From: Psammoneis japonica | Lineage: Eukaryota | Assembly (NCBI GenBank): GCA_008632985.1 | Contig: QPGO01000027.1 | Coordinates: 372,001-436,000 of the forward strand | DNA length: 64,000 nucleotides | Direction of reading: 5' to 3' | Shown here: piece after piece, positions 14 to 41,172 of the stretch | Numbering within the stretch: position 1 is the first letter of the stretch | How the letters are laid out: each line of letters begins with the position of its first letter | Program-made: the position numbers and the translations under genes | The notes under the pieces: model-generated | The model's input: the letters and a program-made list of their open reading frames with translations, nothing else | What the model was told of the DNA's origin: nothing | Databases searched by the model: none

Positions 14-2911
14 CTAGCGGGTGTTACAAGCCATGCTATAACTGCAAGTGGCCTCGCAGTCTGCAGAGCAGCAAAATGAAAAACCATCAGCTTCGCAATC
101 ATCGCCACATTTCACGTTGATGCAGTGTGGGCCTTCAATCGCAACCCTCTCGTAAACGCTGCACAGCACATGCTGGCGGCACCGGTCCCAGATCTCGTTC
201 TCGACGGACGTTTCGGCCTCAGCGTCATATCCAGTGCGACACAAATATGATTCACTGCATTGGGGGCACACATCCGTGTCTGGAACAGCTACCCAGCCTG
301 TCATTATTACTTCATGTCTCCAGTCACTACCACAATCACTTGTGGGACTTGGTGTGCTTATCTCACGGTCGCATAATTCACCTTCATAGCCATCAAAGCA
401 GTCGCAGTCGAAACTTCCCCCTTGGTTGACCCACCATCCCCAATAAGTGTCGCCGTGACGAGTGCAGTCTCCATTGATACAGGACTCGCAAGGATCAGAA
501 ACGCATTGGACATCGTCAACGTCGTCTTCCTCAGGAAGGCAAAGCTCACCAGACCCGCATGGATTGGGGCTGCACCGCTCGTATATGCTCCGACATTCAC
601 AATTCACGCAAGCATAACCTTCAGAGCAATCACTGTGGCCATCGGGACACTCACATTTCGGCACACACTGGTTGGTGTTGTAATTGCACTCTTCGTCATC
701 ACCTCCGCAAGGATGGCCATAACAGCATTCATATTTGCAGACACACTTATTTTCAATGCACTCTTCGCCTTCGTCGGTGTCGCAAGTCGAGTCACCGCAG
801 CAATTAGGATATTCGACTAGTTCCTCTCTGCAGACACAACGTCCTCCCTCGCACACCTCGTAATGTTCGCAAGAAACAGCACAACCAACACACTCATGAT
901 TCTGGCACTCCATCGCACCATCGCAGTCATCATTCCCGCAGCAATCATAACGACACACACACTGATGGCCGCTATCGCTACATCTCTCATCCGCGCCACA
1001 GTCACTGTTGCTGCAGCAATCATGACGACAAACACACAGATGGCGGCTGTTGCTGCATCTCTCGTCGTCATTGGGACAATCGCTTTCGCTACAGCATTCA
1101 TGACGGCAGACGCACGCGTTGCTACTGTCGCATCTATGGTCCTCATCACAGTCACCGTCACTGCAGCACTCGTGGCGACAGGAACAGGTGTTACTCAAGC
1201 ATGTCTCATCACTTCCGCAATCACTGTCGCTGCAACATTCGTGGCGACATTTACATTCATTGTCTTTGCACTCCTCGTCAACTGCGGGGCAGTCGCCATC
1301 GCTACAACATTCGTGGCGGCAGGCGCAAACGTTGTTTGAGCATGTCTCGTCGCTCTGGCAGTCGGCATTGCTGCAACACTCGTGGCGACAGGTGCAACTA
1401 TTGCTTGAGCACATTTCATCGCTTCTGCAGTCATCATTGCTGCAGCACTCAAAGCCACAAATACAGCCGCCCGGGTCTTGACATTCATAGTCTGGAGGGC
1501 AATCATTGTCAGTTACACAGACCGGTGTGCATTGACAATCGACGCAAATGTCACTTCCAGAGCAATCGCTACTGCCGTTGGGGCATTCGCATGCTTTCAA
1601 GCACTCATTGACGTCCGAGCAATACTCGTCACTACCACAATCGCCATCAGTACAGCATTCATGACGACAGACGCATTTGTTCGTGGAGCACATCTCGTTA
1701 CTTTCACAATCACCGTCGCTGCAACATTCATGGGGGCAAATATCGGTTTCCTTTACTATTTCATCACCGACGGCCTTGAAACTGTGCTGCGCCTCACTCC
1801 CAAAGTCACCAGATTCGTCAACAAGCAGTTTCCTATCATCCGAAATGTCGGGGCTATCGTAGATTTTATACCACCCGTCAACGATCCCATTTTGGCCCGT
1901 GTCGAATATTTTGAAAACACATTCAGTTCCTTTCACTGCTTTGACTTGCGTGGTGATCTGGCTGCGGGCTTGTCCAGCGTATGTGCCGGGAGGAAACTCA
2001 GCTACTTCCTTGTTGGTCTCCAACTCCCACCCCGTTTCTTCAGGGCTGTCATCCAGCTGGATGACTACTGACACGGTTGTAAATGATTCGGACTCGGTCA
2101 CCTTGCTGCTGTCCTTTGTCGTCAGTAGCACTGCTACAACAGCAGCAGCTGCTGCTAGAAGAAGGACCGACAAGGCCAGTACAATCTTTTTCCAGCGTCG
2201 TGACCGCGTCGCAGGGACGCTATTGCTTGCTGCGCCCTTCTCCATCGCCTGCTCTTGGCTTTCAGTCATGGTCACAACAGCGACCTGTTCTGCGGGGACA
2301 GCAGAATCAGCCAAAACACGACGAATACGCTCGTCCATGTCATCTTCTTCGCGTTCTTCAGCAACCTGTGCCGCGATAGGAGGAATAGGCATTACTGGTG
2401 AATCGGCGTTGGGCAGCACAGTGTCAGCTGTCGCACCCGTAGGAGTCTCCACATCCTCCTGACGATCCTCGAAGCCACGTTCTCGCACCGCAAAGGCACC
2501 AGGTTGTGGCTCTTGAGACGCGCCAGACTCTACATCTTCGATAATTTCGTTGGCCCCCCTGGCAAATCCTTGCGCAGTCTTGCTACCTTCAAACTCTTCG
2601 TTACAAATAGCCTCAACTGCTCTGTCTATGTCGCCTTGATAGTGATTCAGGACCGCCCTCAATTCCATTACCGTCTTGTCCTCAAAAAGTTCCAACAGCT
2701 GCAATAGTTCATAACTCATTTTTGTCGACCCGGCGGAGGAGTTTGCTACTTTCTGAGCGACTTTGTTATCCAGAGTTGCAGTTGCCTTTTCCATGGGAAA
2801 TTCTTCAGGGCCTTGATCTATTTTCTTCCTTTCAGACGAATGGCGAGGCACCGGCGGGGAGGACGAAGCCGACTCTTCTTCGCCGATTTGTCCAATGTGG
2901 CGGTGTGACAT
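14..2911 (-). CDS. Type II membrane protein: CUE-like ubiquitin-binding domain, TM helix, extracellular Cys-rich tandem repeats and an EGF-like domain
   Basis: 973-aa open frame (14..2935) with first ATG at 2911; a possible splice acceptor (TTGCACAG) near 2928 makes the true start uncertain. CUE-like segment LLELFEDKTVMELRAVLNHYQGDIDRAVEAI, hydrophobic IVLALSVLLLAAAAAVVAVLL, repeated CRHECCSDxDC units and EGF-like CINGDC...CDCFDGYEGELC. Confidence 0.85.
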   Translation of the reverse strand: MSHRHIGQIGEEESASSSPPVPRHSSERKKIDQGPEEFPMEKATATLDNKVAQKVANSSAGSTKMSYELLQLLELFEDKTVMELRAVLNHYQGDIDRAVEAICNEEFEGSKTAQGFARGANEIIEDVESGASQEPQPGAFAVRERGFEDRQEDVETPTGATADTVLPNADSPVMPIPPIAAQVAEEREEDDMDERIRRVLADSAVPAEQVAVVTMTESQEQAMEKGAASNSVPATRSRRWKKIVLALSVLLLAAAAAVVAVLLTTKDSSKVTESESFTTVSVVIQLDDSPEETGWELETNKEVAEFPPGTYAGQARSQITTQVKAVKGTECVFKIFDTGQNGIVDGWYKIYDSPDISDDRKLLVDESGDFGSEAQHSFKAVGDEIVKETDICPHECCSDGDCESNEMCSTNKCVCRHECCTDGDCGSDEYCSDVNECLKACECPNGSSDCSGSDICVDCQCTPVCVTDNDCPPDYECQDPGGCICGFECCSNDDCRSDEMCSSNSCTCRHECCSNADCQSDETCSNNVCACRHECCSDGDCPAVDEECKDNECKCRHECCSDSDCGSDETCLSNTCSCRHECCSDGDCDEDHRCDSSNACVCRHECCSESDCPNDDERCSNSRHLCVCRHDCCSNSDCGADERCSDSGHQCVCRYDCCGNDDCDGAMECQNHECVGCAVSCEHYEVCEGGRCVCREELVEYPNCCGDSTCDTDEGEECIENKCVCKYECCYGHPCGGDDEECNYNTNQCVPKCECPDGHSDCSEGYACVNCECRSIYERCSPNPCGSGELCLPEEDDVDDVQCVSDPCESCINGDCTRHGDTYWGWWVNQGGSFDCDCFDGYEGELCDREISTPSPTSDCGSDWRHEVIMTGWVAVPDTDVCPQCSESYLCRTGYDAEAETSVENEIWDRCRQHVLCSVYERVAIEGPHCINVKCGDDCEADGFSFCCSADCEATCSYSMACNTR
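700..1740 (-). repeat. Coding tandem repeat of ~21-23-aa Cys-rich units (C-x-H/Y-E/D-C-C-S-D/N-x-D-C)
   Basis: More than a dozen diverged units are visible in the translation, e.g. CRHECCSDGDC, CRHECCSNADC, CRYDCCGNDDC. Confidence 0.85.
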
Positions 2912-4348
2912 ACTCGTACTCTGACACCTGTGCAAAGAACAAAGAATGCAATGGGGAGGATTAGAAAATTAGCTGTAGGAAAAGGTCTGAATTATGTAAA
3001 AACATTACAACCCGATATCTGGCCGACAGAACTTACTCTCTCGTTTCTCGTTGCAGTCGATACATACTCGTACGGTGTGAAATAACTCTCTTGATATCAC
3101 TTGTGGCATTTGGCAACAACCAAAAGATCCGTTGAGTTTGCTTTGCATGTTATATATCCTTTGTTTTGTGTCAACAAAAAATGAGAACCCCATTCATGAC
3201 CACTCTTCGCGTTTTTGCTTACGTTGTCAACAACGAGAGCAACATACGGCGCGGCGGTTTCGCGGAATCCAATGCGGTTAAAAAGTTGAAGCCATCGCCT
3301 CAACACTACCTCTTGCCTTGAATGTATGAATGGAGAGGTCAACGATCTTTGACCTTTACCATCTGTCTTCCATCGTCGTTTCGCATTCACCTTCATTCAT
3401 CACGGCGCGTCTATTTACAAAGTGCTCAGCACAGCATTTGCACACGGCGCTGCATTTTTTGTTGTGGTGGTGAAACATCATGTGCTGCAGACGGACAAGA
3501 GGTGCATGCTGTAGCGTGAAATTTCGCGCGGCGGCGAAAACAGTGTTGTTTTTTCGTCACAGCCACACCCAGCACGTTTTGCGAGATCAATTGCTCCGTT
3601 GACCTCTCTTGCCATTGAGTGAGGTGTCGTTGAATCAGAAATCAATGTGAGAGTCCATTTTCACCCTTGTTTTTGAAAATCGGTTGTAAACTCGTTGAGC
3701 CAGTCATTGAGACTGCTGTTTTTGCCTGTTTCTGCTTCCATCGTTGGCCTCGTCGTTTGCTCTTTGCTGGTGCATCTTCATCCGATGGCTGTCATGGCTC
3801 GGATTGTTTGTTTGTTGTGTTGAGAAGAGTGTCTGAACCATGCACTGTTGTGGGGAATGTTGTCATTGCAACAAAAAAGTCGTTTGGTGAGCAGCACCGT
3901 GGCTTTTTGTCCCATCCCGTTGGCCACATCATTCGCGCTTTGCGGGTGGCGCGGCTTCATCCGTTGTCTTTCATGGCTCGGACCATTTGTTCATTGTGTT
4001 GAGAAGAGCACCTGATTGTTTCATTGTCATGGGGAGTGTTGTCATTGCAGCACAAAGTTGTTTTTGCCATCACTTTCTTTGTGGTCATGCAGCTGATGGT
4101 GCTTTTTGTTTTTGTTGTTGCTTTGAACAGCTTGGTCAGTGGACACACGTGCCATGAGGAGAGTGAGCAACCACATTGAAAGCAAACACAATCAGCTGCA
4201 ATGGCATTGTCAGAGAAAAATGACGCCAATCCACACAGAAAACAAGTGCAGAGTGCTCCAAGAAATGGGGCAACAGGGGGGCATTTTCAGCACACCGGGG
4301 CAAGGATCTGTCCAAGACGTGCCTCACCATTGCTTTGAAGATTCCAAG

Positions 4349-4624
4349 TGACAGAAAATGAAGGCAAATGGCAAGAATTCAAACAACAACTCCTTGCTGC
4401 TGTCTAAACAGCAGATGAGTCTCCGCTCAGAGACCGTTGCAGGAGCCGAAAGACGTGCAAGTCGGTGCAATCGGGCTGCTGTTGTTGTTCTTGTGAGCCT
4501 TGTGGCTCGAAAGCAAACTACATCGCGCGTGAACGCGCGGAACCAAAGCACACAAAACTGTGCACGGTGAACTAAACAGCGCGCGATGCTTCGCGCACAC
4601 CCAAATCCTGTTCAAATCCTGTCA
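4349..4624 (-). repeat. 3' LTR of Copia element
   Basis: Direct repeat of 11753-12028 with 12 mismatches and no indels. Confidence 0.97.
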
Positions 4625-7600
4625 CTCCCCAGTTTGCTTGAGGAGCCACAGAAACAGATTCGACTTCGGATGGAATGAAGTTCCAGAACATGAGGGGGCG
4701 GAGAAGGTCCCAGATTTGGGAGCAACCCCAATGCTTGCTGAGAATGTCAGCAGGGTTGCGGGAGCCTTCGATGAAGTGGAGCTCAAGGCAACCAGAGGCA
4801 ATTGCCTCACGCACACGGTGGAACGACAGTGCGGTGTGTCGCTTGTGTAACTTGGAGTGCGGGATGGTGGCACTGTCTACAACCGACTTGTTGTCACCGA
4901 ACATGTAACTGACGTTATGGATCGGGACGCCAAGGCAGCGCAGGGTGATGCGCAGGTCGACAATCTGCTCAACACAAGTCCTTGCGGCAACAAATTCAGA
5001 CCCGCAGGTCGCAGTCTCCACGGTGGCTTGTTTCTCAGAGAACCAATCAGCCGGGAATTTGTTGAGGAAGTGGAGCATTCCCATGACAGAGCGTCCGGTG
5101 AGCATGCAATGGCACAAGTTTGCATTGACGCAGTGGGTGGCAGTGACGAACTTGCCAAGGGGCGGTGGAGCGTCCTTCGGGATCATCTCTTCTGCTTCAC
5201 CACACACGGAATGCATCCACTCACAGGCCGGAGCAGGGAGATCCGAACAGTCGGGCTCTTCCGTGCGAACGTGGAGAGCACCGTGTCGCATCTTGGAGAG
5301 GCACCCACAGACGCGCTTGGCACGATCCAAGTGGCCTTGACGGGGCGCAGCTCGGAAGCTAGAGAGTGACATGACGGCCGTGGCAATGTCAATTCGACCA
5401 AGGGACACTGCCCATTGGAGTGAACCAACAAGAGACTGGAACTTGTGGATGCCATCGGGTCCCAGCAGTTCGGAAGTGTCCAGTTCGGGGTGGTCACCCT
5501 TCTCTAGAGGTGACAGGGCATTGGTGGCAGGTTTCTCCCCAAACAGTCGGGCACAGCTGTCGACCATGCGCTCGATGTACTTGCGCGGAGACAGGCACAA
5601 GGTTCCGTCGGGTTCCCGGGAAAAGTCGCAACCCAGATGGAACTCAATGGGTCCCGCACCCTTGAGCTTGAACTTGTGCTTTTCCGTGAGGGTGTCGACG
5701 AAAGATTGAGGGTCCTTCATGGCAATGGCGAGGTCATCCACATAAACGGCAATGTGTTCACAGTGGTCGCCGTTCCTGCGCATCCAAATGTCGGGTTCGG
5801 CGCGGCAGGGGAAGAAGCCTTCAGCTCGCAGGCAGTCGGCGAAGCGCTCGTGCCAGTGGAGACCGGAGCTGCGCAGTCCATGCAGTGCCTTGTGGATGAC
5901 AAGGATGTGTCCTTCGAGTTTGCCGAACTCGGGTCCAGCTGCAATGTAAAGCTTCTCCTTGGTGGTGGCTTCAAGGCAGGCATTGCCAATGTCGGTGGCC
6001 CATGTCTCCAACTCGTTGAGTTCGGCCAGGAAAATCATCAGCCGAAGGCCACGGAGGGAGACCACTCCGGAGCAGACACTGTCGATGGGTGCGTCCGTGA
6101 GGTGCCCGTCGGCTGCGAGTCATGCCTTGTGGCGACCGTCGTGTTTCACGTCGCACACCAGGTGCACTCGGATCTTCTTGTGTCCCGCAGGAGGAGTGGA
6201 AGACTTGAAGGGCCCACAGTCATGGAAGACTTCGTACTCGTCGAGTTGGTCCATCTCGAGATTAGTTGCGTCTCCCCACTTGCGGTTGCCGTTGCGTTCG
6301 TCTAGTGACATGGCGTGTTTGCAGTTCCGGGGAACTTCGCATCCACACTTGTAGCGAGGTGCAGTGCGGAAGGAGCGAAGCTTGGCTTGGTTGGCCATGC
6401 GAAATAGCTTCTTTTGGCGCCTCGCGATGGTGCGGAACCGCTTCCAGCCATCCGTGTCGAGGAGTCCGTTCTCTCGTGCATAGATGGCACAGGTGACGGG
6501 GTCGTCCTTGGCGATGATGGCAAGAGGCTCGGACGTGATCTCCCCACTTTCCCATTCAAGCATGATGTTGTAGCTGGAGCCTTTCCAGGTTGGGTCGTGA
6601 GGCTTCAGAGGTCCTTCGTGTGACACGATGCGTCGAAATTTCCAAACAGTGGTGTCTTCGTCTTCTTGCTCAATGTGATTCATGATGTCATTGCAGGCAA
6701 GGACTTCCTCGTATTCGTCATTGTTGACAGAGCAGACGAACTTAGTGAGCTCGGGATTGCCGTTCACTTTCCATTCGTGGTCTTCGACGGCCTTGACGAT
6801 GCGAGCTCTGTGGCGTTGTCCGTCCTCTTGTGGCTGCATGAGGAAGGCACGTCCAATGATGTCTTGCGGATCCAAAACTGGCATCTTGGGTGTCCTGATC
6901 TCCCCATCAGGAGAGTCGACGGGGTTGTCGTCATGGCGAGATTTGATGATGGGTTCAGGTGGCTCCCCATCAGGAGGATCAAGACGCAGGTTTCGGACAG
7001 CAGGATCGGGGGCAGCGGAGCGGACGTTGGACCGGCAGAGGATCTTCTGATTCTCGTCAGATAGAATCTTGAAGGTCATCTGGTGGCCGACGTGCTCAGC
7101 AATGCCAATGAAGCGTCCACGCAACTCACGGGATTCGGACGGCCAATCGGAGTCATCGAGGTGGAAGCACACGGGTTCCCACCAGTGAAAGCGAAGCAAT
7201 GGGCTGATGTCCGGGGTGGAGCCAGTGAGAGTCTCAAGGGGCATGCGCCAGTGGAGACGTGGGGACGCTGCATGGTTGAGTGTGAAGCACACGCACATGA
7301 GCGCCAGCAGCCATGCATGGGCGGGCGAACCAAAACGATCCATGACAGTGTTCGCCATGCGCTTCACGGTCTGGCATCGACGCTCGGCAAAGTTTTGGTG
7401 TTGCTGGTGAGGCTCACTTTGCCAGCTAGAGATGAAGAGGGCGCGTAGGATCCCGAGCACTTTGTTGCTGATCTCAACTTGAGCACGGTCGCCAATGAGT
7501 TTGGATGGGGCACCACGTTCACGGATCTGATCCTCGAGTGTGTTGACAAACTCTTTGTCCGTCTCAGTGCCATGGACGTCAGTGACGGTAGACTCGGTGC

Positions 7601-9205
7601 CAACAAACAGTTGGGCGCTGGTGCAACCAGAGTCGACGGCCGGGGTGTCGGCACAAATGGTGTCAGTGGCGACAGGCTCGTTGCGGCGGTGCACATTAAG
7701 GGCGGGGTTGGGTGATTTGCAGGCCTTGCGAAGGTGTGTACCGGCGGGCATGCGGGCGCACTGCGTGGTGCAGTCAAAAGTACGACGGACCGCATCGGCA
7801 GGCAGGAAGCCAAAGCAAGGCCGAAGAGACTCGAAGGGGGGGTCCTTGGGCTGTGCAGTGCGCTCCGGAGGTGGAACATCATCGCCCTGGGGGCCAATCG
7901 CATGCAGATGACACTCGTAGAACACGTCGTCGTTCGGAATGAGGTGATCATCGAGGACGGACGCGTGATCGGCAGACAAGGAAGCGGACATGATGGTCTC
8001 GTTGACAACGACACGATGACGGTAGTTGCCGCATTCGTCAAATGGGTTGGCAGTGGGATCGTCCTGTAGGTCAGAGATCGCGTCGTACCACTGGTCGTCG
8101 TCAGTGACAGAGTGATCGAGGACGGAAGGGTCCCATGTGTCATCACCGGTGAGGATGACATGGGGCAGGGTGTCCCATTCGGCGTCAGTGTAAGGTCGCA
8201 TGGCAACACAAGGCAGGCCAGCCTTGATGTCAATGGGGATGACATGGCCATCAGGAGTGGCAGTACGTTGCAAGCCGTTGGGCACCTTGACAGAGCGATC
8301 GTTGACATCCTGTTTGTGCCATTCGAGCTGGCCGCAGGAATGGATGGTCTTGCCCTTGCCCGTGCATGCGTGCTGATGGAGCATGGTGATGACGGGACCA
8401 CGCTGGGTCTCAATGACGGCACCAGCGGTGACAATGGGGATGTCCACCAATTGATGATCGTCAATGCCCTGAACGTCGACTTGGCGAGAGGTGCGTGCAA
8501 TGACGCGAACGTCGTCGCCAGCAATGCCGCCGTTGGCCCCACGATCGACTAGAGCGCCAGTGCGTGTGGAGCGATGAGCAGAAGCAGAGCAAATGACATT
8601 GTGGTTGTTGATGCGGCGGCAAGTGCGACCGTCAAGTTCCATGTCATCTGCAGAAGCTGGCGGGGTAGAGGAAGCGGCGGATGGCCCCGGTCGACTGGCA
8701 TTGGGGGCTTGGTTAGGAGACAACAGACGTTGCAGATCACCGGGTGGCAGTGGCTTGCGCTTGGTGAGGTGCACCAGGATGGGATTGTCCGAAGTGGCGT
8801 CCACATGTGGAGCGGAGTCACCAGAGTCAGCAGGAGTCGTGTTGGACAAGTTGACATCACCGTCACTCCCAAGGCGTTGGTCGTGAAGGTTGGCCGTAAC
8901 AGACTCATGGCAGTTGCTGGCTCGCGGGTTGCGGGGAGGTGGATGAGAATGCTCAAGGATGATCGCCTTGGAGGAATCGGGCAACGAATCCCAGAGCCGT
9001 TGGTGGTCGGGAGGGAGACGTCTCCATTGGACACCGGTGAGGCTGGGACCGCGGGTGCAGGCAGCATTGGCTTGAAGGACGTCAACGTCGCTGTCAATGT
9101 CGTAGAACACATCGTCGGACGGTTCCTCGGAGCAGACGTCGTGTGCGCACATGGCGCGTCGGGGAGCTCGAGGTGTCGTCTTGGGTTGAAACGTGCTGTC
9201 GTGCT

Positions 9206-9573
9206 TGATCCCACCGCTTTCACGGCTCTCAAATCCGACAAGCAGTGGCACACTTGGCACACCTCACTTGTGGCACAAGCCCGTGCCCAAGACGTCGAGT
9301 GCATTCTAGACTCGTCGTACAAACCGACCAGCCCCGAAGACAAACTGCTCTTTGCTGAACAGCAAAAGCACATGTTCGCCGTCTTCGAACGCATCCTTCT
9401 CACCGACAAGGGCAAGGCTCTCATTTGCGAAAATGTGGGGTCTTCTGATGCACAGACCGTCTGCCGCTCCTTGTCTGAGCACGCGCTTGCCTCCACCCGT
9501 GCATCTGTCGAGTCCTCCACCCTGCTCACGCACCTCACCACCGCGCGTCTTGGTGATGGCACTTGGAAAGGTC
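9206..9573 (+). repeat. Inverted copy of gag segment 10009-10376, probably an assembly chimera from another copy or allele
   Basis: 368-bp reverse-complement match; the junction falls on a GATC present in both partners; abuts the N gap. Confidence 0.85.
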
Positions 9574-9916
9574 NNNNNNNNNNNNNNNNNNNNNNNNNNN
9601 NNNNNNNNNNNNNNNNNNNNNNNNNNNNNNNNNNNNNNNNNNNNNNNNNNNNNNNNNNNNNNNNNNNNNNNNNNNNNNNNNNNNNNNNNNNNNNNNNNNN
9701 NNNNNNNNNNNNNNNNNNNNNNNNNNNNNNNNNNNNNNNNNNNNNNNNNNNNNNNNNNNNNNNNNNNNNNNNNNNNNNNNNNNNNNNNNNNNNNNNNNNN
9801 NNNNNNNNNNNNNNNNNNNNNNNNNNNNNNNNNNNNNNNNNNNNNNNNNNNNNNNNNNNNNNNNNNNNNNNNNNNNNNNNNNNNNNNNNNNNNNNNNNNN
9901 NNNNNNNNNNNNNNNN
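9574..9916. other. Assembly gap (N run)
   Basis: 343 consecutive N. Confidence 1.
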
Positions 9917-11752
9917 CTTCTGTCCTTCAGAGAAGTGGTCACTGGCCGGGATGAGTGCCTCGCACTTGCGCAACTGATCTTGCCAATGAAGGATGAACCC
10001 GTGGGTCGGACCTTTCCAAGTGCCATCACCAAGACGCGCGGTGGTGAGGCACGTGAGCAGGGTGGAGGACTCGACAGATGCGCGGGTGGAGGCAAGCGCG
10101 TGCTCAGACAAGGAGCGGCAGACGGTCTGTGCGTCAGAAGACCCCACATTTTCGCGAATGAGAGCCTTGCCCTTGTCGGTGAGAAGGATGCATTCGAAGA
10201 CGGCGAACATGCACTTTTGCTGTTCAGCAAAGAGCAGTTTGTCTTCGGGGCTGGTCGGTTTGTACGACGAGTCTAGAATGCACTCGACGTCTTGGGCACG
10301 GGCTTGTGCCACAAGTGAGGTGTGCCAAGTGTGCCACTGCTTGTCGGATTTGAGAGCCGTGAAAGCGGTGGGATCACGCTTGATGCCTCGCTTGAAGTCC
10401 CGCACCGGGTCGCATGCCTTGGTCGGGTTGGTGACATGTGGAGGTGCAAGGGGTGAGCTGCCGATGGACACAGAAGACATGCAGTCGGGGCTGAGGCGGC
10501 AGGCAAGGAACTCGTCATGCGTGAACAAAGAGGAGTTGTTGGCAACGTCAAGACCTTTGTGTGCTTTGACAATGTACAGACTGACCAGTGCTGCTAACAT
10601 GTTCTTACAACCACGGGGCAAAGGGATTGCATCAGTGCCGTTGTCGCACTCAAGCGAGTCGATTTGGGACGGCATGAACGTGAACAGTTCCTGATGCGAG
10701 TCCGTGCCGTCTTGGGCCAAAGCCAAACGAAGAGGACTCCCAGCACCTTGGGCAAGCACGGTTCCAACCACGTGCTCGAAACCATCGGTTTGTTGCTGAC
10801 GAGTGAGAACCATGGCAGACAAAGGTGGTGTCAGGACAATCAATTCTGGTTGGGAAGCGAAGGTAGACTCGAAACTTGGGTGAGAACAGACTTGACTTGA
10901 AATGGACTTGACTTGAAATCTTGAACTGTCTTAAAATCAGAAGTCGCCGGGCTTTGTCATCCCGTTCGTTGTCAAGTGCTAAACTTCCTGTCCGGTCCGT
11001 AGAGTTGTGCCGGCACGTCCGAACCCGCAGCTGGCGGCGCTTTGGGTTGCTTGCGAGCGGAGCAGCGGGTTGCAAACCCCTGCAGGCAAGCTGACTGGAG
11101 GTGGACAAGACCCCCGAACCGTTCTTATTTTGTGTCGGTTGGATTTCCCGATCAGGCTGGCCAGTTGACGCAGGCGTCAGGCGCTGTGGACGAACGAACA
11201 AACGCGGGAAAGCACCCTCGCCCCAACGCAGGCTGCAATCACGGCTGCCTGCTCTCACAGTCGTCCTCGTGGACCCAGCAGAACTGCAGAGCACCAGTGG
11301 TCCGGGGCAGATCAGGTGCAATGGACTCGGTGTGCTTGTAGAGTGGCAGCAAAACCGTGGTCCAAAGAGTGGATAAAGGTTCTTGGCCGTGAAGACATGT
11401 GTGTATGTGCACATGTCTTCAGCGACGAAGATCCTTGAACATGTGGGGTTCTTGACCGTCAACCGAGGAACAGGCAAATCAAGGGATGTTGATCAAGGAT
11501 AGACTTGGATATGACCGTTGAATGTAAGTCTTCAGCGATCAAAGGCAGCACAATCAATCCAGACATCCAGCGGTGAGGAGACTTGACGGTGACGTTAACT
11601 TCCTGCCGATGCCCTGGTTTGAATGCGCGTAGACTTGCCGATGTATGTAGAAATATACGGAGGTCCACGTAGAATTGAAATAGCGTCGTTGGTAAATCAA
11701 CGACGACGATGGCGGTTGCTCAATGGGTTGACAATGAGCAAGACTGCCAATC

Positions 11753-12028
11753 TGACAGAAAATGAAGGCAAATGGCAAGAATTCAAACAATGACTCCTTG
11801 CTGCTGTCTAAACAGCAGATGAGTCTCCGCTCAGAGACCGTTGCAGGAGCCGAAAGACGTGTAAGTCGGTATAATCGGGCTACTGTTATTATTCTTGTGA
11901 GCCTTGTGGCTCGAAAGCAAACTACATCGCGCGTGAACGCGCGGAACTAAAGCACACAAAACTGTGCACGGTAAACTAAACAGCGCGCGATGCTTCGCGC
12001 GCACCTAAATCCTGTTCAAATCCTGTCA
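11753..12028 (-). repeat. 5' LTR of Copia element (less mutated copy)
   Basis: Direct repeat of 4349-4624; keeps 12 TA dinucleotides versus 3 in the 3' LTR. Confidence 0.97.
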
Positions 12029-14599
12029 CCAAGGGTGGAAGAAGAAGCAAAGTTTGTCAAATGCTGTCTGTCATCCTTCTGGACAATGCCACACAGGCCA
12101 CCATCATCAGCAAAATGGGTTGATGCTGCCATCTCAAATGCTTTGTGCTTCAAACCTCCTTCATGTTCAAGTGTGCAATCCTCTCCAAATTTGCCAAGTC
12201 TTGCACATTGGAAGGGGATGGCACATCACCAAGGACCACATTGAGTGCACTTCCATGGGCAATGCCGTGGATCACTCTGTGACAAGCCCAGGCTCATTGC
12301 GCACTCCTGAACCCCAAATTGTGCACCTTTTTTACACTTTGTGCAGTGTGCACAACTCCACTTGTCTCTGGCACTGGATGATGACAAGACACATGACAAT
12401 CCAGTTGAGTGAGAAAGCAAGAAGCAAAGTGATGCTGCCAACATCTGAGCAGCTGTTGTTGTTCCTTCTGCACTGCACCATCTGTTTGCACAAGAGACAC
12501 TTCTCATTGTCAAAGCAGCTGTCATGTGCAGTTGGAAGAAAAAGAAATCAGAGGCAGAAAAGCTGAAAAAAGCACTGGAGACTTCAAGGAAGGCTGCTGA
12601 GAAAGCTGCTGCCAAAGAAGCTGCAACAAAGAAAGGAAACCACCAGCCAATGTGTCAATTGCTTCTGTGCTCAAGATGTCTGAAACGAACTTCGACGAGG
12701 ATTGTGAGCACTTTGGAGCCCCGCTGAAATCTGTTGGAAAGCTTGAGAACTGGTGCAATGTTGAGTGGAAGTGGAGCAAGGCAGGTCAAGAGATCAATTC
12801 ATTTTGACTGCAATCCAGATGCACATGATGTTGCAGTTGTGAAGGTGTTGCAGGAGAGCAAGAAAGAAACTGAAGCAAAGCACCAGGATGTGTGATGAAA
12901 CTGGCGAAACTGGCACGCCATGTCTGCACGCCAACCAAGGGAAGGAGCGAGCACAAAAAGAAGGGGGGAAACCATGAGGGTTTGGGAATGGCAGCGTGTT
13001 TGCCATGAGACACATCTGGCCATGTCTGAAGCTGCATTTCTGGCGGTCCTTGTTCAACTTTCCCATGCTTCAGTTGAGTGAGTTTTTTCTCAGCTCAACA
13101 AGTGTGCTCTTGTTGAGACAGCTCAGCACAACATGTTGCACAAAGATGCCACTTTGTTGCATCTTTTTTTCTTGTTTGCACACAGCACATGCTGTCAATC
13201 AAGACCACCAGTGGTGCTGCAAGAGAGAAGCCTTGAGTCAAAGAGAGCCATTTCTCAGCTCTAGCATGCTTCCATGGTGCAACTTTGTTGTGTCATTTTT
13301 CACATTGGCACAAAGGATGAGGATTCAGCAGCAAGCACAGTGCAGCAGTGTGATGTGATTAACAGCATGATGCAGTGGCAATGTCCCTGGTCCATTCCTG
13401 GTCTCACACATGTGAGACAGTGCAGAAATTTTGGTCACAGACATTCTTTGGGTCATTCTGCCCCCTGTCTCACAAACAATGTGAGACCAGGATTTTGTTC
13501 ACATCAATGTCATCATGTGCCACATGAAATTGGATGCACACCTCATGCAACATCCGGCATGTGCAACTGAATGAAAAAAAGGCAGCTTCAAAATGTTGTT
13601 CCTGTGGAATTTTGCATGTTTTCCAGTGCAAATCATGGTCTCACATGTCTGAGACCAGGGTCACATTTAGACCTGAAATGCCTCTCCCCTCCGGATGCAT
13701 TGTGGAAAGCCACTTCACAGGTTGTTTGAACAATTTCAACCACCAGACACTTTCATTTGAGAATGTTTTAGCTCCTTTGGTCTGCTCAGGTGTCAAATGA
13801 CCAGTTCCATGCATGGTTGTGGGTCACTGAAAACCTGGTCTCAGAATGGTGAGGCCAGGATTTGTGGACCAGGAACATGATGCACTGGTGATGCAATGCA
13901 GCAGCAATGTAAAATGCAATCAAGAAGCAACAAACAGCATCACATTGCCAGCTGCCAGCAATGAAGCATGGCTGCGCTGAACCTGGCACTGCACTGCACA
14001 CATTCTGCACAGTGCACACTCTGTGCAATGCATTGTGCGCTCCACTCACTGAAAATCAAAAATGGGCCTGGCCCCACTTTTTGACATTTCTGATTGGGTT
14101 TCACACCAGTGTGACAGGGAAGAAAGTTTCTGTTGACATCCTGCAACCACCCCCCACAAAGCCATCCATTGCCCAGCATCTGTGCAAACCCTTCAACTCC
14201 AAGAGCTTTGCAGCATCTGCCCTGCCTGATGCAACACCCTCCAGAGCTGGTGATGGCAAATTTACCTTGATTCACCCACCATCACCACACCAATCAGCAG
14301 TTGCAGCACACCTTGAAAAAGGCCCAAAACTGTCAAAAGTTTGTGGGGCCAAGACATGCAACATGGACCGTTCCTCTCCACCCATCAACCCCTTCAATGC
14401 AAATGCTTTCAATTGAGTCTTTGGCATCTGATGTCAAGACAAAGAATCAAAAACTGAAATCTGGTGCATTTTGACCTGTGAGTGCACATCATGTCAGCAA
14501 TTTGAAAGAAGTCTCACCTGCAAATTGTGCACCAGCCCATGAGCCAACATCCAGCTGTCATCATGCATCACAGGAAATGGCTCCAGCAAGAACTGCACA

Positions 14600-15020
14600 A
14601 GCCTTTTTGAGTGGTTCAACATCAACCCATCTTCCAGACAGCCAAACCTGGATCCAGGAACATTCTTGAACCCCCAAGACCAAAACCATGTCAGACATGA
14701 TCTCCAACCCATCTTTGATCAACAAGGACAACCTTCAGAAGCTGCACTTCCGCTGTGAGCAACCCATGCATGCAGGGAATGTCATCATTGAAAACAACAT
14801 GCTTGTCATCTGCAAATCCATGATTGACTCTGTTGGAAACTTCGCCAAACTTCAAATCATGCCATTTGAGAATCTTTGGAATGTGACATTTGTCATGTTC
14901 CACACAAACCCCATTGGAAGCCACTTTAGCATGCACCGCACCTTCCACCACATCTGACTGCAATGCTTCTGGCCAAACATGCACAAGCACATCACAAACT
15001 GGATCAGCAAATGCCTTGCC
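14600..15020 (+). pseudogene. Degenerate retrotransposon integrase zinc-binding (HHCC) fragment
   Basis: LQIMP...FHTNPIGSHFSMHRTFHHI*LQCFWPNMHKHITNWISKC resembles the H..GH.G...T...R..YWP.M...I...C motif, with Tyr->His/Cys and Arg->stop changes. Confidence 0.6.
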
Positions 15021-16399
15021 AAACTCAACAATGAACTTGAACTCAATGGGGTGCATGCCAAAGATGGGTTCTCACAAGCAACAGTGGACTGTCTCAAACC
15101 CTCATCAAATCCCATTTTCATTGAGGTGCTTGAAGGCATCAATGCAAGTGTAAACAACAGCATGGACTTGACACTTGACTGGCCCTCACAGTCCACAAAA
15201 TTGGAGCACCAACTGCACAGCAAAACCACAAACCATCCCAACCGGCATCAAATCTGAGCCACCTCATGTCCTGCATCATCCAGAGTGAGCACAACAAGCA
15301 GTTCTTTGTCTCATGCTGAGCCCCTGGCACTGCTTGCACTGAGTGGAATCTCATTCAAGCAAATTGAACACTGTGGCCAAATGCCCTGATGCATTTTCAG
15401 ACAACAAAATCTGCGTTGAATTTTTTGCTCATCATCCACACCACAATGATGTGCAGCTCAGCACCCCAAATCAATGCTGTTGGAAAGAGCATCACTGACT
15501 CAACAGCAGGTTTGTTCTCCACAACAATTTCCACCTTCTCAAGCCATCACCAAATGAGCACAGTTGTGCACGTGAAAAGTGCTTGATTGTTTTCTTGCAG
15601 CGGGTGCATGTCAATCACCCAGATGTGTGCCTCAACGGACCCTTCAATTTTGCAGTGATCAGGCATGCAATTGTGTGTTCTCCACAGACTCCTGGAAAAT
15701 CCTGTCATCATTGTCGCAACAACACATGAGAATGAAGCTCCAACCAAACAACCGTCAAACCTGTTGTTCTGGCTCAACATCATGAACATGCAGTTTCACA
15801 CCATTCATTGGGACCCTGCAATGGAAGCCCAGGCATTTGCCCTTCTCACTCACAAACATGTGCACAACAATTAAATGCTGAGCTCTCACAAGCTGTCAGA
15901 CCATCAAACGATCCACAACCACCATCTCCTCTTAAATGAGTTGCTCCCAAAAGATTGGCCTGGTCCAAAACCATTTTCCCACCAAAACAGAAACCACCCA
16001 AAATGGCACCCCAGCCCAAAATGGGCACCCCCACAATTTTTCTTTTTCATTCAACACCCCTCAGGTTTTTGCAAATCATGCTTTTTCTCCTCACCCATCA
16101 TCCTCTCCAACATCATCCCCATGGTGTTCTGTCTGCATGAAGCATCTGAATCTTGTCAAAAGCTCCACAGCTTTTGCCATCTTTTTTGGGTGGCTTGAAA
16201 GCAGAGCTTGTCAAAGCTGATGTCAGCAATGCCCAATTCCAGAAAGCTGTCAACCATTGGCACATGAGTTGCCAATTGTTGGCAGTTTTCCTCTTTCCTT
16301 GCCACTTTTTCAGTGCACCACAGGAGAGCAGCTCACAATCTGGGTGATCATCACTCACTTCCATGCCACTCCACTTTTAAGAATTGATGATTCTTTTTT

Positions 16400-18700
16400 G
16401 CTGCAATGCAGCAAAGTGCAGCACACATGTTCACAAAGCAACAAATGAAGACATTCAACCTGTGGCAAGAGCTGTTCCATGCAAACTCAAGCAATGTGCC
16501 ATTTCCTTGCTCACGGGGTCCATGCTCAAGTTCCACACATCAGCCACATGCCCAACGGCAGCATTTGCATCGACTGCATCATCCTCATCACGATCCTCTT
16601 GTTCATCCCAAACATCAACATCTTGCAATCATTCCATCCTTTTGTGTCGTCAATGTGGAACATGACATTGGTCAGAAGACACGCTCTTTGCAAGGCCCTG
16701 CATGCCAAGGTTGGTCCTTTGCATTGACATTGCTGACCCACTCTTGTGACTTCCTCTGTTGGCACCCCAGGCAGCTGCAAGGCATCCGTTGCACCAACGT
16801 GGAGCTTGTCCCAGCACAAAGTCTACAAAGAGATCACAGTGTGCCTGCAAGCTGTTGTGCTCACCTTTTTCAAATCCCAATGGTTGTGCCACTTTGCAAC
16901 AAGATGCTCAGGCCAGAGAATGTGCGGTTGTCACTCTTTTGTCTTCCTGTCCATGTGAAGCTTCCTTCAACATGAGTGGCTGATGACTCCATGTGCCCCA
17001 TCTCTGGATCACTCAAGACCTCAAAAGCTGCAGCTGCCAGGCCAGTGCACTCCTCTCCATCCACTGCATGAGTGCTGATTTTTTGTTGTCATCTTCTGGT
17101 GCAGTCTTGGGCTGGGACACAAGACAAGTGAAGCACTTGTCCAGTTCTGTCTTGTTGGCTCCATTTTGTGAGTCCACCATGCCCTTTTTTTGCCCAAGAG
17201 CCAACACTGCTTGGCTGTGTGTGATTTTGAACTCAAACACCAGGAGCAACAGAAGGAGCAGAGCTGCTCTGCTTCAGTGCTGGCAACAGCAGCCATCCAA
17301 ATGGTCCAACATTTTCTTCATTTTCTCTCATGTCATTTCACCCCATTTGACAAGGTTCTCAAGCATGGCTTTGATGTTCTTGCACATGGTGGCTGCATCC
17401 CACTGTCTCTCAACTAACAAACATGAGCAGAGCACCATTTTTCAATCTGTCTTGCCTTGGACCTTCAAGTTGATGGTGGCTCCTTCCATTGACACATTTT
17501 GATTGTTTCCAAGCCTTTCAGACACAATGTCTCCATCAGGTGTGGCATCACACCACTCAGCATGATCTCCATCTCCTTGCTCATTTCTTGACCACATTCA
17601 TTCATTGCTCCCCAACATGATGACATGCATCCCATTGTGGAACATCTTTTTGAGACATTTGGAGCACATTCCTTTTCTTGCCATGAAGTCCTTCATCAGG
17701 GCTCTGACTCTTGCCCTCAATTTTCCAGAGGTGATGTTGGGCCTTTTCTTGAGCTTTGCCTTTTCCTCCTCAGTCATTTTCTCACACCTCACATTTGTTG
17801 CTTCCCTTGTGAATGTGACCTGTGCTGTGGATGTTGCATTTCACAAAAGTTGAGAACACATTGCAGCTGATGGGTTCATTGCAATCCTTCTCCAATTGGG
17901 GGCTTGTTGCACAGGGCAGTTGGGGCATCTCCTGAGAACACAAAGTGAAGATGGGAGAACACTTCAGTGTTGCCACAACTGACAGTTTCAGCAGCATCCC
18001 ACACTCTTTTGTGAAGAGGCATGCCATCTTTGTGCAATGTGCTTTGTCTGTTGACTCTGCTTTGTGCATGAGCCATTGCACCCTTCTGCCATGCCAGTGG
18101 CTCAACAACTCTTGTTTGTCATTTCATGTGACACAAACTTTGCAACCACACATTTGCCTGCTCCTCTTTGTCATTTTTGACACCCAGTTGGGCATGAATT
18201 TTCTGAGTGCTGTCTCTGGCAACAAACACAGCTCCATTGTTGTCCCCTGAGCTCCACAAAATCCACCACTCCTGCTGGGATCTTGTGTCATTTTGTTGCG
18301 CAGTTCTCAAGGCAACATGGCAAGCAGCTTTCACTGTGTTTCTTCATGCTTGTTGTCACATCTCCTTCTTGTGACCCTTGCCCATTTGTGAGAGCATGTT
18401 GGCACACAACATCAGCGGCAAATTTGCAACAGCAGAGACAAAGCAACCCAATGATGGAAAGACTTGCCTTTGTGGCTTCTCTTCCAAATGGTGTTGTTTT
18501 TAAGTGGAGAGTCCTTCATGTGTCTGTTCTTCACAATCCAATCTCTCAAGCCTTCAATGAGCTCATTGGGGCATTTTGACCATGGTCTCTTTTTCTCTGC
18601 CAACTCACATGATGCTTCATCCCCATTCTTTGCTTTCCTTCTCTTCTTCTCCAATCTGGCAAACAAGCAAGATCCAGCAGCAGCAACCAGGATGCCAAGC
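16400..18700 (-). pseudogene. Degenerate DDD transposase relic, Sola2-like
   Basis: Minus-strand LDHLDGCCCQH*S (~17270-17310) back-mutates to SDGCxxQYRS, followed by LALGQKKGMVDSQNG (cf. HGKGxxDG); upstream Cys motif QMCGCKVC. Family assignment is from remembered motifs; limits approximate. Confidence 0.5.
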
Positions 18701-19378
18701 TGGTGGCTCAGTGCTGAGTCTTCAGGTGATTCAGGAGGGGCATGTTTGCTGTTGTCAATCCAGTGCCATTGGCAATTGCACGGCATTTGTCCATTGGTTG
18801 GCCATTGTTTGACTTTGTTTTGCTCATGGCTTTCAAGAAACTCCTGGTGTTTTGAGCCATTTGCATGCTGACTTTTGCCTCCTCAGAATTAAAGCCAGCC
18901 ATTGATGATGAAACTGCTGTGACTCTTGGATCTGCAAGGGTGCCTTGTGATGCCAGCAACCATTGTTGATCAAAGTTGCCTGCGCTTGGCATTGCAACTG
19001 CTGTCGTGTGTTTGGCCCTGTTCTTTGCCCACGTTGCTGCCTCAGGTGCGTCATTTCCTTGCCACAATTGCCTGCTCAAATTGCCTGGCTTGTGATGGCA
19101 ATGCGCAAACTGACCCAACAGATTTGATGCATCTGGTGTTGGCAGATCTGCAAGCTGGTTGCAACATTGCCCATTTTGGTTGCAGTGTTGCCCACCTTTG
19201 AGCAGCGCCACTTGTTGCATCAGAGTCTTGAGCTGCTGATGGCCTTGTTGAAGTCTGCAATCATTTTGCTCAAAGCAGCACCAGCTTTTTCTTTCTTTGA
19301 CCCACTGAACAGCAAGTGTTGCATCCACAATGCCCAAGAAATTGACTGCATGAAAACAGCTGGGACTGGATCCATCTC

Positions 19379-20225
19379 TGACAGGATTTGAGTGAGATTT
19401 TAGTTCGTCACACATGATTGTGTGTGCTCTCAGTTCCGCGTGCATCGCGATGCAGTTTGCTTTCGAGCCACCAGCTCACAAGAACAACAACAGTGGTGCC
19501 AACATCACGACACCAGTTTTTCGGCTCCTGTGACGGTCTCTGCATGGAGACTCATCTGCCATTTAGACAGCAGTGAGGAGTCATTGGTTTCTTCCACCCA
19601 GTCATCTTCATTTTCTGTCAGTCCGCAAGGACATGCGTTGAGCAGATCATTGATCTGCACATCACTTTGCGTCACCTTGGTGTCCCCATTTGTGAAACAT
19701 GTTGCATGTTTGGGGACAACAAGTTGGTTGTGGACAGTGCTGCCATCCCGCACTCCAAGTTGCACAAGCGACACACCGCCCTCTCATTCCATCATGCACG
19801 TGAGGCGATTGCCTCCGGTTTCCTTGAGTTTCATTTCATCAAAGGCTCCTGCAACCCAGCTGACATCCTCAGCAAGCATTGGGGTTGCTCCCAAGTCTGG
19901 AGCCTCCTTCGTCCTCTAATGTTTTGGAACTTTGATCCTGAGGCTTTCAACCAATCTGACCTCGAATCTGTCGCTGTTGATGCCTCAAGCAAACTGGGGA
20001 GTGACAGGATTTGAACAAGATTTTAGTTTGTCACGCACAATCATGTGTGCTCTTAGTTCAGCGCGCATCGTGCGTGCGATGTAGTTTGCTGACAACAGCA
20101 GTGCCGACATCGCGACACTTGTCTTTTGGCTCCTGCAATGGTCTCTGCACGGAGACTCATCTGCTGTTTAGACAGCAGCAAGGAGTTGTTGTTTTCTTTC
20201 ACCCAGTCATCTTCATTTTCTGTCA
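19379..20225 (+). mobile_element. Non-autonomous deletion derivative of a closely related Copia (LTR - RNase H tail - PPT - LTR)
   Basis: LTRs 19379-19620 and 20002-20225 are similar to the reverse complement of 4349-4624; TSD ATCTC at 19374-19378 and 20226-20230; the 381-bp interior encodes ARTCVEQIIDL...NPADILSKHWG; PPT AAACTGGGGAG precedes 20002. Confidence 0.92.
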
Positions 20226-33237: not shown

Positions 33238-34160
33238 TGAAGTGTAAGGTATGAGTAGGAACGGGTTCAGCGTTGCGTCGTATTGTCAGCCATTGGCCGC
33301 TCCTCCGCATCCAGCATCCGCTATGGGTACGACTAGCAAAAAATGAAATATGATATAATCATTGACATATAAAAAACATTGATATGATTTATCAATGACG
33401 CATATACAAGAATGTTGAATGACTGCATATGACTTTTTGTGTAAGATTTGTACTGTTCTACGCACTTAACGAACAAAATGCTAAGGCAATACATAGAATG
33501 ACTCTTCTTAAGTACGAATTCAAATAACGCCCGCCACGCCATTTAATCAAACATTCTAGCATATATGAAGTATTATTCAAAGACGGAGTTGACAAACGGA
33601 GTATCGACGGTTGAATGTGTAACATCTAAAAAAACATCTAAATAGTTAAAAAGTATGGACTTTTGTGAGACTTTTGTGTATGTAACACAAGTAAAACCTG
33701 CTATATGTTTTGGCAAGAACCGTTATCATTAAATAAAGGGGTACATAAAATCCAATACAAAATGTCTGACCGGTATAACAGGTACGTTTATGCTAGTCGT
33801 AGCCTCATATATCATCTCTCCATCTCTCAACAGTTCGACGGCTAAAAATGTCGAAATTTCGATTGGCGCGCCAAAACTTCTGGGAACCTATCAGTTATCG
33901 GACTGACATTATTGTTCGTAGCGCTGTGTAGACTGTGTATGAAAACTCGAGTCATTATGACGCGATGATTTTGGCGGTTGTGTAGAAGCTACGTGGGAAC
34001 TTGGTACACGGGTGGGAACCAACATTTGAATTTTGTCTCATTCCAACGTCGGAACCAGCGCAGCGATTTTGACAAATTCGGCCGATTCCCGACGTAGAGT
34101 CACGTACGGTAGGCATACCAGCGTTCCGGGAACCGGCCGTCGCGTTCCCGGGAGTGAGCG

Positions 34161-40100: not shown

Positions 40101-40183
40101 CCTGAATGTCCAATGCGTCAGTTGACATGCACACATCAGAGAGGGCACACTCGGTCATAAAGCACATGTGCCTGTCTCATTCA
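34161..40183 (-). mobile_element. Full-length Ty3/Gypsy LTR retrotransposon, hypermutated and inactivated
   Basis: 182-bp LTRs at 34161-34342 and 40002-40183; TSD GAGCG at 34156-34160 and 40184-40188; PPT GGAGGGGAAGAG; gag (~39700-38400), protease LFDSGGS, RT (KKDGRVRW, TYIDDI), RNase H (TDASD, EKELLA, TDHKNL), integrase (ADLIGPW, HDNGGEF, NSVCERMH). Confidence 0.96.
35583..36064 (+). mobile_element. TRIM-like miniature LTR element nested in the Gypsy, opposite orientation
   Basis: Direct repeats 35583-35692 (110 bp) and 35920-36064 (145 bp including a 35-bp internal duplication), both TG...CA; PPT GGGGAGGAG before the second; TGTG flanks both ends. Confidence 0.85.
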
Positions 40184-40999: not shown

Positions 41000-41172
41000 A
41001 CTCAGTCAGTCAGTCACTCAGTCAGTCAGTCAGTCACTCAGTCACTCAGTCACTCACTCACTCACTCACTCAGTCACTCACTCACTCACTCACTTACTCA
41101 CTCAGTCACTCACTCAGTCACTCAGTCACTCAGTCACTCAGTCACTCAGTCACTCACTCAGTCACTCACTCA
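41000..41172. repeat. (TCAG/TCAC)n tetranucleotide microsatellite, continuing at 41949-42004
   Basis: Seen directly; the array is split by the MITE. Confidence 0.95.

Follow-up and report, generated by a model that had tools for sequence, protein, structure and literature searches.

A Copia retrotransposon of the diatom Psammoneis japonica has lost tyrosine codons through change at TpA dinucleotides while its reading frames stay open

The window analyzed here is a 64,000-nucleotide stretch of the diatom Psammoneis japonica (GenBank assembly GCA_008632985.1, contig QPGO01000027.1, positions 372,001 to 436,000 of the forward strand), and all positions are counted from its first letter. It holds a nearly full-length Ty1/Copia long terminal repeat (LTR) retrotransposon on the minus strand (4349-12028), recognized by its LTR pair, a 5-bp target-site duplication, and a match to the Pfam family RVT_2. 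At most of the conserved places where its relatives carry tyrosine, this element carries cysteine or histidine, and its DNA is severely depleted in the dinucleotide TpA (TA).

The two LTRs (3' LTR at 4349-4624, 5' LTR at 11753-12028) are in direct orientation, are 96% identical, and have the ends TG..CA (TGACAG...CTGTCA). The target-site duplication reads CTTGG on the minus strand, and the five bases at 4344-4348 on the 3' side are matched perfectly at 12029-12033 on the 5' side. Within pol, a frame of 515 amino acids for reverse transcriptase (RT) and RNase H (4575-6119; 4572-6119 with its own stop) carries a Copia-type RT domain (RVT_2, PF07727; E = 2.2e-20, 73.7 bits against a Pfam cut-off of 31.6). 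A lone in-frame TGA at 6120-6122 splits it from an upstream frame of 1047 amino acids (6123-9263), for which 150 relatives were found and which spans the protease and integrase region. The closest full-length relative found, P0123 (1881 amino acids), aligns by tblastn over its residues 343-1880 with 9218..4656 in one piece through the single stop, and its residues 1-300 locate the gag region at 9917-10813. All of these features lie on the minus strand. A short purine run (GGGGAG) lies immediately before the 3' LTR, where a polypurine tract would be expected. The family is present in high copy number: contigs of four sequencing runs, all from one sample and possibly the assembly's own data, were placed on 4338-9573, 10,569 of them from run X1, and the states of other copies reported below come from the 40 of 254 variable places that were listed and classified.

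Support for the integrase is modest. A profile of 6984-7856 (minus strand) together with 12 relatives matches retroviral integrases (chains 5cz1, 5cz2, 3jca, and 7usf; E values of 1.6e-5 to 5.8e-5), and a single-sequence search of PDB reached an integrase at an E value of only 0.2. Pfam returned no family at E <= 1 for the 1047-residue open reading frame (ORF), and its rve family matched neither the window element nor two intact relatives; intact relatives likewise give RVT_2 only. With the catalytic core region placed there, the gene order, integrase upstream of RT, would be that of Copia. The element also contains an assembly gap of 343 N (9574-9916), adjoined by a duplicate, 388 nt long and inverted, of part of gag (9186-9573, plus strand), which is 96% complementary to 10009-10396 and corresponds, in reverse orientation, to residues 142-269 of gag in P0123. 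Contigs of other copies depart from the window sequence at 9201-9206, within this duplicate, which reflects a true rearrangement or else was introduced by the assembly.

A first-pass annotation, made from the letters of the stretch, had claimed that the proteins of this element were disabled by systematic replacement of tyrosine with cysteine or histidine, and had put the tyrosines of the two long ORFs at about 10 and 4. Those counts are right: the 1047-residue ORF has 10 Tyr, 30 Cys, and 48 His, and the 515-residue ORF has 4 Tyr, 21 Cys, and 26 His. Across both, Cys makes up 2.9-4.1% and His 4.6-5.0%. The RT frame was set against 120 relatives that are 55-69% identical to it, a column being counted as conserved at 70% or above, and the upstream, integrase-bearing frame against its 150 relatives. 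Tyrosine makes up 0.78% of the window RT versus a median of 4.6% in relatives, whereas Cys stands at 4.08% versus 1.2% and His at 5.05% versus 3.7%. Among the 331 conserved RT columns, 19 are tyrosine columns, of which the window element keeps 4 and shows Cys at 11, His at 3, and Phe at 1; the other conserved columns are kept in 280 of 312 cases (Tyr versus rest, Fisher p = 5.6e-11). The integrase-bearing ORF keeps 3 of 7 conserved tyrosines and has 2 Cys and 2 His in place of the others, compared with 14 replacements in its 226 other conserved columns (p = 8e-4). When both frames are pooled, the 26 conserved tyrosine columns read 7 Tyr, 13 Cys, 5 His, and 1 Phe, and the conserved columns of other residues are retained in 492 of 538 cases, so the systematic replacement itself is borne out.

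The comparison with P0123 extends this picture and gives it a direction. Its 67 aligned tyrosines correspond in the window to 10 Tyr, 25 Cys, 9 His, 8 Phe, and 15 other residues; at the 97 positions where it has Cys or His, the window never has Tyr. In gag, 11 tyrosines of P0123 correspond to 1 Tyr, 5 Cys, 2 Phe, and 3 others. The motif changes that had been read by eye also agree with the consensus of the relatives: NAYL>NACL, ALYGL>ALHGL, YEYIAVYVDD>CEHIAVYVDD, GYL>GCL, ATYGSE>ATCGSE, LRYLG>LRCLG, and KHWGY>KHWGC. The proposed change of KARLVA to KA*LAA is confirmed in both parts, with the stop at 6120-6122 read as CGA (Arg) in 96% of the depth of other copies and a GCA codon standing at a column that is 99% Val in relatives. 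The word "disabled" fared less well. Tyrosines have been replaced, which may have cost the proteins their function, and the tyrosine of YVDD is retained in the window RT.

Tyrosine, which the annotation had treated as the unit of damage, is indeed lost; the unit, however, is the TA dinucleotide of the DNA and not tyrosine as such, since eight non-tyrosine replacements and silent sites are affected alike. In the element interior, the ratio of observed to expected occurrences (o/e) is 0.18 for TA, 1.57 for CA, 1.27 for TG, and 0.90 for CG. Silent sites tell the same story: the 1562 codons include no ATA, one GTA, and one TTA, and a T/A step across codons occurs at 13 of 1560 junctions versus 95 of 2150 in seven host ORFs. 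The annotation had also suggested setting TA-type replacements against all others, and the alignment assigns 26 of the 65 replaced conserved columns to single TA changes (TA>TG at 20, TA>CA at 6). Of the rest, 7 are CpG>TpG/CpA changes, other transitions account for 3 and transversions for 15, and in 14 more than one step is required; the transversions and multi-step replacements may be ordinary divergence of the family. The eight TA-type replacements outside tyrosine are V>A, I>M (twice), I>V (twice), K>E, T>A, and S>G. Overall, about 75-80% of the element's TpA has been converted to TpG or CpA, and the affected element has a GC content of 55-58% versus 47-49%.

Such loss leaves reading frames open, as the annotation had supposed. 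No new stop arises, because a change of TA to CA or TG never turns a sense codon into TAA, TAG, or TGA; existing TAA and TAG triplets are destroyed, or TAA becomes TGA and remains a stop. In the element interior, a count over all frames of the two strands gives 40 TAA plus TAG versus 181 TGA, compared with 389 versus 415 in genic DNA at 42.5-53.7 kb. When an 80% loss of TA was simulated in the RT segment of seven intact environmental relatives, their 21-25 tyrosines fell to 4-5 with no stop gained, and the window RT has 4 tyrosines. An equal number of random substitutions produced 7.6 stops per 1562 codons, and random transitions 3.8. The window element has one stop in 1563 codons, and that TGA is a private CpG>TpG change of this copy.

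The LTR pair dates the change relative to integration. Among 276 nt, 12 positions are mismatched, and 9 of them are a TA in the 5' LTR facing CA (4) or TG (5) in the 3' LTR; in no case is TA present in the 3' LTR only, and the remainder consists of one CA/TG swap and one CpG/CpA difference. Thus 9 of 12 TA sites have changed, compared with no more than 3 among the roughly 264 remaining positions of the LTR. Because LTRs are identical at insertion, yet these differ at nine TA sites, the change postdates integration, and the 4 versus 5 events in the 3' LTR mean that both strands were struck. The 3' LTR has 3 TA left. The 5' LTR, with 12 TA and a TA o/e of about 0.7, was spared, as was the adjoining 5' leader (11500-11752, minus strand), which has a TA o/e of 0.72 in a 250-bp profile. 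Shielding close to the promoter, editing in patchy tracts, or gene conversion could each underlie the sparing. It is not a general rule for 5' LTRs, as both LTRs of a Gypsy element in the window keep only 3 TA each. APOBEC3 acts on human immunodeficiency virus (HIV) as a single-strand deaminase at the cDNA stage and leaves a gradient; a gradient of that kind is ruled out as the source of the 5' sparing by the hits on both strands and the difference between the LTRs.

The edited adenine preferentially precedes a pyrimidine (5'-TAY-3'). Conserved tyrosine codons that follow c or t have become Cys in 10 cases and His in none, whereas those that follow a or g have become Cys in 3 and His in 5 (Fisher p = 0.0065). 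Among LTR events with a 3' pyrimidine on one strand only, 5 of 6 strike that strand. The TAs that survive (189 in 41,981 bp of transposable element (TE) domains, set against 741 in 16,802 bp of genic DNA) are enriched 3.1-fold in TTAA and 3.5-fold in CTAA, with ATAC at 0.11-fold and ATAT at 0 of 189 versus 59 of 741. Cys outnumbers His because TAY is preferred and the tyrosine codon is itself TAY, and His (CAY) appears only after a purine because the opposite strand then reads TAY as well. A transcription-coupled or sense-strand bias, considered for the Cys excess, was dropped, given that the context suffices and that the 3' LTR strands were struck 4 versus 5 times; in addition, a strand count at the protein level is biased, because TA>CA across codons is silent.

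Other copies of the family carry the same kinds of states. The variable places in the run X1 contigs comprise 220 transitions versus 25 transversions. At 4544, 4569, and 5036, 90-98% of other-copy depth reads TA (97-98% at the 3' LTR sites 4544 and 4569) where the window reads CA or TG. This agrees with the annotation's view that TA is ancestral, which the conserved tyrosines of relatives and the lack of any tyrosine at the 97 P0123 Cys/His positions likewise uphold. At 4918, 5272, 5520, 5857, 6122, and 6999, 94-100% of other-copy depth reads CG, and the window has TG or CA. Three of the 14 RT codons that changed from Tyr to Cys or His are among the places listed: other copies read Cys 45% and His 55% at codon 148; Cys 59%, His 39%, and Tyr 2% at codon 395; and Cys 80%, His 12%, and Tyr 8% at codon 16. 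The same TA has therefore been struck independently in separate copies, because Cys and His are two steps apart and each is one step from Tyr. Among 7 adjacent CA/TG pairs, the excess runs toward TA in 5 and toward CG in none (depth-weighted, with linkage of the bases assumed).

The footprint is not peculiar to the Copia element. In 1-kb and 200-bp profiles, the window (1-64000) is a mosaic of three compositional states, which give way to one another within 200 bp, with borders at about 28.5, 34.1, 42.4, and 54.0 kb. The genic parts (28.6-34 kb and 42.5-53.9 kb) have a TA o/e of 0.5-0.9 and a CG o/e of about 1; the Copia and Gypsy elements have TA at 0.03-0.2 and CG at 0.5-0.96; and 12-28.5 kb and 54-64 kb have TA at about 0.03, CG at about 0.1, and CA and TG at about 2.0. 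The most depleted domains are complex sequence and not simple repeats. One of them, old TE debris at 12034-28500 (TA o/e ~0.03, CG o/e ~0.1), was the target of the Copia insertion, and a Pfam search of 40 long ORFs across the window found nothing in the old domains. The three states suggest that TA is lost first and fast and CpG later and slowly. An unrelated Ty3/Gypsy element (34160-40183, minus strand; Pfam RVT_1 and RT_RNaseH) shows the same footprint, with 0-1.1% Tyr and 3-5.7% Cys in its frames and a TA o/e of 0.03-0.2. Its LTRs (34160-34342 and 40001-40183) are 183 nt long and 92% identical.

Two side observations concern these domains. An RNase H remnant at 19622-19927 (plus strand), 64% identical to P0123 by tblastn, marks an older related Copia copy within the most depleted domain, and beyond it a stretch at about 20002-20210 resembles the LTR of the studied element. 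The differences between the Gypsy LTRs are mostly CpG-type or CA/TG swaps, including GTGTG versus ACACA at 34290-34294.

We interpret these data as DNA-level hypermutation of a resident Copia element at TpA, a reading to which we assign a probability of about 0.85. After integration, TpA would be turned into TpG or CpA by A:T>G:C transitions on either strand of the palindromic TA. The process would be directed at silenced TE chromatin and confined to TE-derived domains, would outpace CpG decay, which would remove CG later, and would act as a genome defence analogous to that of fungi. For the chemistry, we give about even odds to adenine deamination to inosine by an enzyme like ADAT2 or TadA. 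The spectrum, direction, post-integration timing, sequence context, restriction to domains, and effect on the proteins come directly from the comparisons given above.

Several points weigh against this interpretation. The enzyme, its chemistry, and its targeting are things that we infer, and oxidation of thymine, whose products 5-hydroxymethyluracil and 5-formyluracil pair with G, yields the same spectrum as adenine deamination, so that the chemistry could be either. The spectrum is not purely TpA: it includes CpG-type changes and, at non-TA sites, A>G or T>C changes that are private to this copy (ATT>ACT at 5220, 5928, and 6237; AAT>AGT at 6915; GAA>GGA at 5448; GAG>GGG at 5691), which suggest that the A:T>G:C bias is broader or that subfamilies differ. 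Normal TA persists in the 5' LTR and in roughly 250 bp of leader, although these parts match the 3' LTR in how often they are repeated, and gene conversion could produce the same picture. The context test draws on 24 polarised events, and the copy states on a single sample, part of whose variable places were classified. Finally, internal tyrosine codons are mostly lost in other copies, and LTR copies mostly keep TA at 4544 and 4569, and part of the internal damage may therefore have been inherited from source copies that were already mutated. In that case, elements that already bore part of the damage either kept their mobility or were copied in trans, and the description of them as disabled would need qualifying.

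Inherited damage is what RNA hyperediting would predict, in which an ADAR-like enzyme converts A to I in the transcript and reverse transcription fixes the change before integration, so that daughters receive it. The 13 to 5 excess of Cys, the product of sense-strand A>G, over His at conserved tyrosine columns would fit, as would the sense-strand o/e of the window RT (TG 1.53 and CA 1.28, with TA at 0.13) set beside the medians of 80 RT-related metagenome loci (TG 1.28, CA 1.24, TA 0.70), and so would the sharing of Cys by many other copies, such as the 80% at RT codon 16. We nevertheless consider it improbable. A difference between the LTRs at nine TA sites is impossible before integration, both LTR strands were struck, the five Tyr>His changes need events on the antisense strand, and the TAY context fully explains the excess of Cys. 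ADARs favour a 3' G neighbour, unlike the pyrimidine preferred here, and non-coding TE debris is affected too.

Still less probable is that Cys and His are native to the family, or that TA (UpA in RNA) is avoided through selection on RNA or codon usage, the element being undamaged. Its 1562 codons are open save for one stop, and TA-poor coding that retains tyrosine does exist. Among the 80 metagenome loci, two, L039 (3-1211) and L041 (1599-2759), have an RT TA o/e of 0.24-0.29, and L039, at 0.24, still has 3.7% Tyr, as if it had lost TA only where selection allows. Within the RT alignment, by contrast, the window residue occurs in 0-1 of 120 relatives at 13 of the 14 Tyr>Cys/His columns, the exception being one column with 32 His. 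A single codon reads Tyr, Cys, or His across copies of the same genome, and the non-coding 3' LTR was struck while its twin was spared. Other environmental relatives (79 of 80) have 0-2 Tyr>Cys/His changes. The remaining one, L041, is 68% identical to the window element and has Cys or His at 6 of 18 conserved tyrosines (for example ATCGSE and DWCSKKQ). The process thus occurs beyond this genome, and is not the rule among the assembled relatives.

An artefact of assembly or base calling, in which silenced DNA would carry at TA a modified base that is called as G or C, is very slightly less credible again. The N gap and the odd inverted duplicate inside the element could be taken as signs of trouble, and the sequencing platform of the runs is not on record. 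In opposition to this, 66% of sampled 31-mers of the stretch are present in run X1 contigs, thousands of contigs from paralogous copies show like states, and the old domains lack about 97% of their expected TA and have sharp borders. L041 is moreover an independent metagenome contig with the same kind of replacement, and the published case of TpA hypermutation in the alga Bigelowiella natans rests on Illumina reads (bioRxiv 10.64898/2026.01.13.699255). Classical cytosine deamination at CpA, with TA derived in the 5' LTR and in relatives, can be set aside almost entirely: the LTR comparison alone gives no direction, and some diatom lineages encode DNMT4 enzymes related to fungal RID, as stated in PMC9998398, but TA is depleted about 10-fold instead of enriched, the GC content is raised, the conserved tyrosines of 120 and 150 relatives make TA ancestral, and most other copies read TA among the places listed.

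The remainder of the window contains several features apart from these elements. The CGLD27 host gene (50246-51085) has its best named matches all in diatoms, at <=71% identity. Neighbouring genes have long exons and 'SAFVAP'-type signal-peptide cleavage motifs, a mark of heterokont plastid targeting. Both observations place the host among the diatoms and exclude Bigelowiella. Only two relatives were found for an ORF at 43080-44486. A Pfam match to the C-terminal domain of GMC oxidoreductases (53798-53959, minus strand; about 54 residues, model positions 81-139 of 139) stops exactly at the border of a domain in which TA and CG are erased, and the upstream part gave no Pfam signal in 17 minus-strand ORFs; either a TE insertion cut this host gene short or it was itself hypermutated. 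Arrays of a (TCAC/TCAG)n microsatellite lie between the Gypsy element and the genic stretch (40994-41172 and 41948-42004). At the other end of the window, a 984-residue open frame (17-2968, minus strand) with 12.3% Cys, no Pfam match, and a TA o/e of 0.42-0.56 was observed.

TpA hypermutation has practical consequences. Dead elements keep kilobase-long ORFs, and annotation will thus probably treat them as intact or as genes. In addition, dating by LTR divergence overestimates age unless TA sites are masked; here, TA-type changes make up three quarters (9/12) of the LTR differences.

The natural target of ADAT2- and TadA-like enzymes is the adenosine at tRNA position 34 (A34), which follows a universal U33. 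We tentatively propose, at somewhat less than even odds, that diatoms possess a defence similar in design and opposite in chemistry to that of fungi: a nuclear adenine editor derived from tRNA A34 deaminases, which would still read a 'U33-A34'-like TA(Y), would be aimed at silenced transposons, and would leave stop-free 'ghost ORFs'. Were this so, TE annotation, TE dating, and GC content would be distorted in many protist genomes.

Among known processes, decay through CpG methylation and deamination explains part of what we see, namely the TGA stop, 7 replaced columns out of 65, and the low CG o/e (about 0.1) of the old domains. It is much slower than the loss of TA here, as the young Copia element has a CG o/e of 0.90 and a TA o/e of 0.18. 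According to PMC9998398, TEs of the model diatom are CpG-methylated, and loss of CpG is expected of methylated TEs.

APOBEC3 and ADAR in animals offer a second comparison, as they too are associated with context-specific, deaminase-type hypermutation of retroelements that can be fossilised in genomes. They act before integration, on minus-strand cDNA (G>A) or on one strand of RNA (A>G), whereas the change described here affects both strands of resident DNA after integration and in a TA(Y) context.

A parallel in design is fungal repeat-induced point mutation (RIP); it changes C to T at CpA and so creates TpA, AT-richness, and many stop codons. Both are directed transition hypermutation of repeated or foreign DNA, with sharp domains and a dinucleotide signature. 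Unlike RIP, the process in P. japonica makes A:T>G:C changes at TpA, destroys TpA, raises GC, and makes no stops, so that the hallmarks of RIP are absent from the element (TA o/e 0.18, GC 55-58%, 1 stop in 1563 codons). The spared Copia 5' LTR gives no sign of a dependence on homology.

The same kind of hypermutation has been described in B. natans. In a preprint (Mettrop et al., bioRxiv 10.64898/2026.01.13.699255), a giant virus and a virophage that are integrated in this alga undergo about 6e-7 changes per site and generation in mutation-accumulation lines, all at TpA; an ADAT2-like deaminase is proposed, unproven, as the agent; and TpA-poor coding sequences are enriched in RT and DDE domains. 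As in that alga, TpA>TpG/CpA transitions affect foreign DNA only and leave the rest of the genome normal, and TpA depletion is coupled to enrichment of CpA and TpG, here with a CA/TG o/e of about 2.0. The two cases differ in that B. natans belongs to Rhizaria and P. japonica is a diatom (Stramenopila), and in that the targets here are LTR retrotransposons. The depletion is also deeper, with a TA o/e of 0.03 in the old domains versus 0.45 in the nucleocytoplasmic large DNA virus region of B. natans. In P. japonica, CpG erasure follows, and the mutation rate quoted above is that of B. natans. The TAY preference, the Tyr>Cys/His footprint, and the absence of new stops are described here, and the text of the preprint, as far as it was available, contains neither these nor diatoms. 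No report of TpA-directed hypermutation in diatoms was found in the literature, with most subscription journals outside the search, and the 2026 preprint on B. natans is the only report that we found of A:T>G:C hypermutation confined to TpA. Since a chlorarachniophyte bears the same signature, the defence, if our tentative proposal is correct, would be ancient within the Stramenopila-Alveolata-Rhizaria (SAR) group or older. Collectively, our data add constraints on the editor, namely the TAY context, action on two strands of resident DNA, sharp borders, a spared 5' LTR, and a pace faster than that of CpG decay, and would carry TpA-only hypermutation, so far described in a single rhizarian alga, over to the diatoms, a major group of phytoplankton that is open to experiment.

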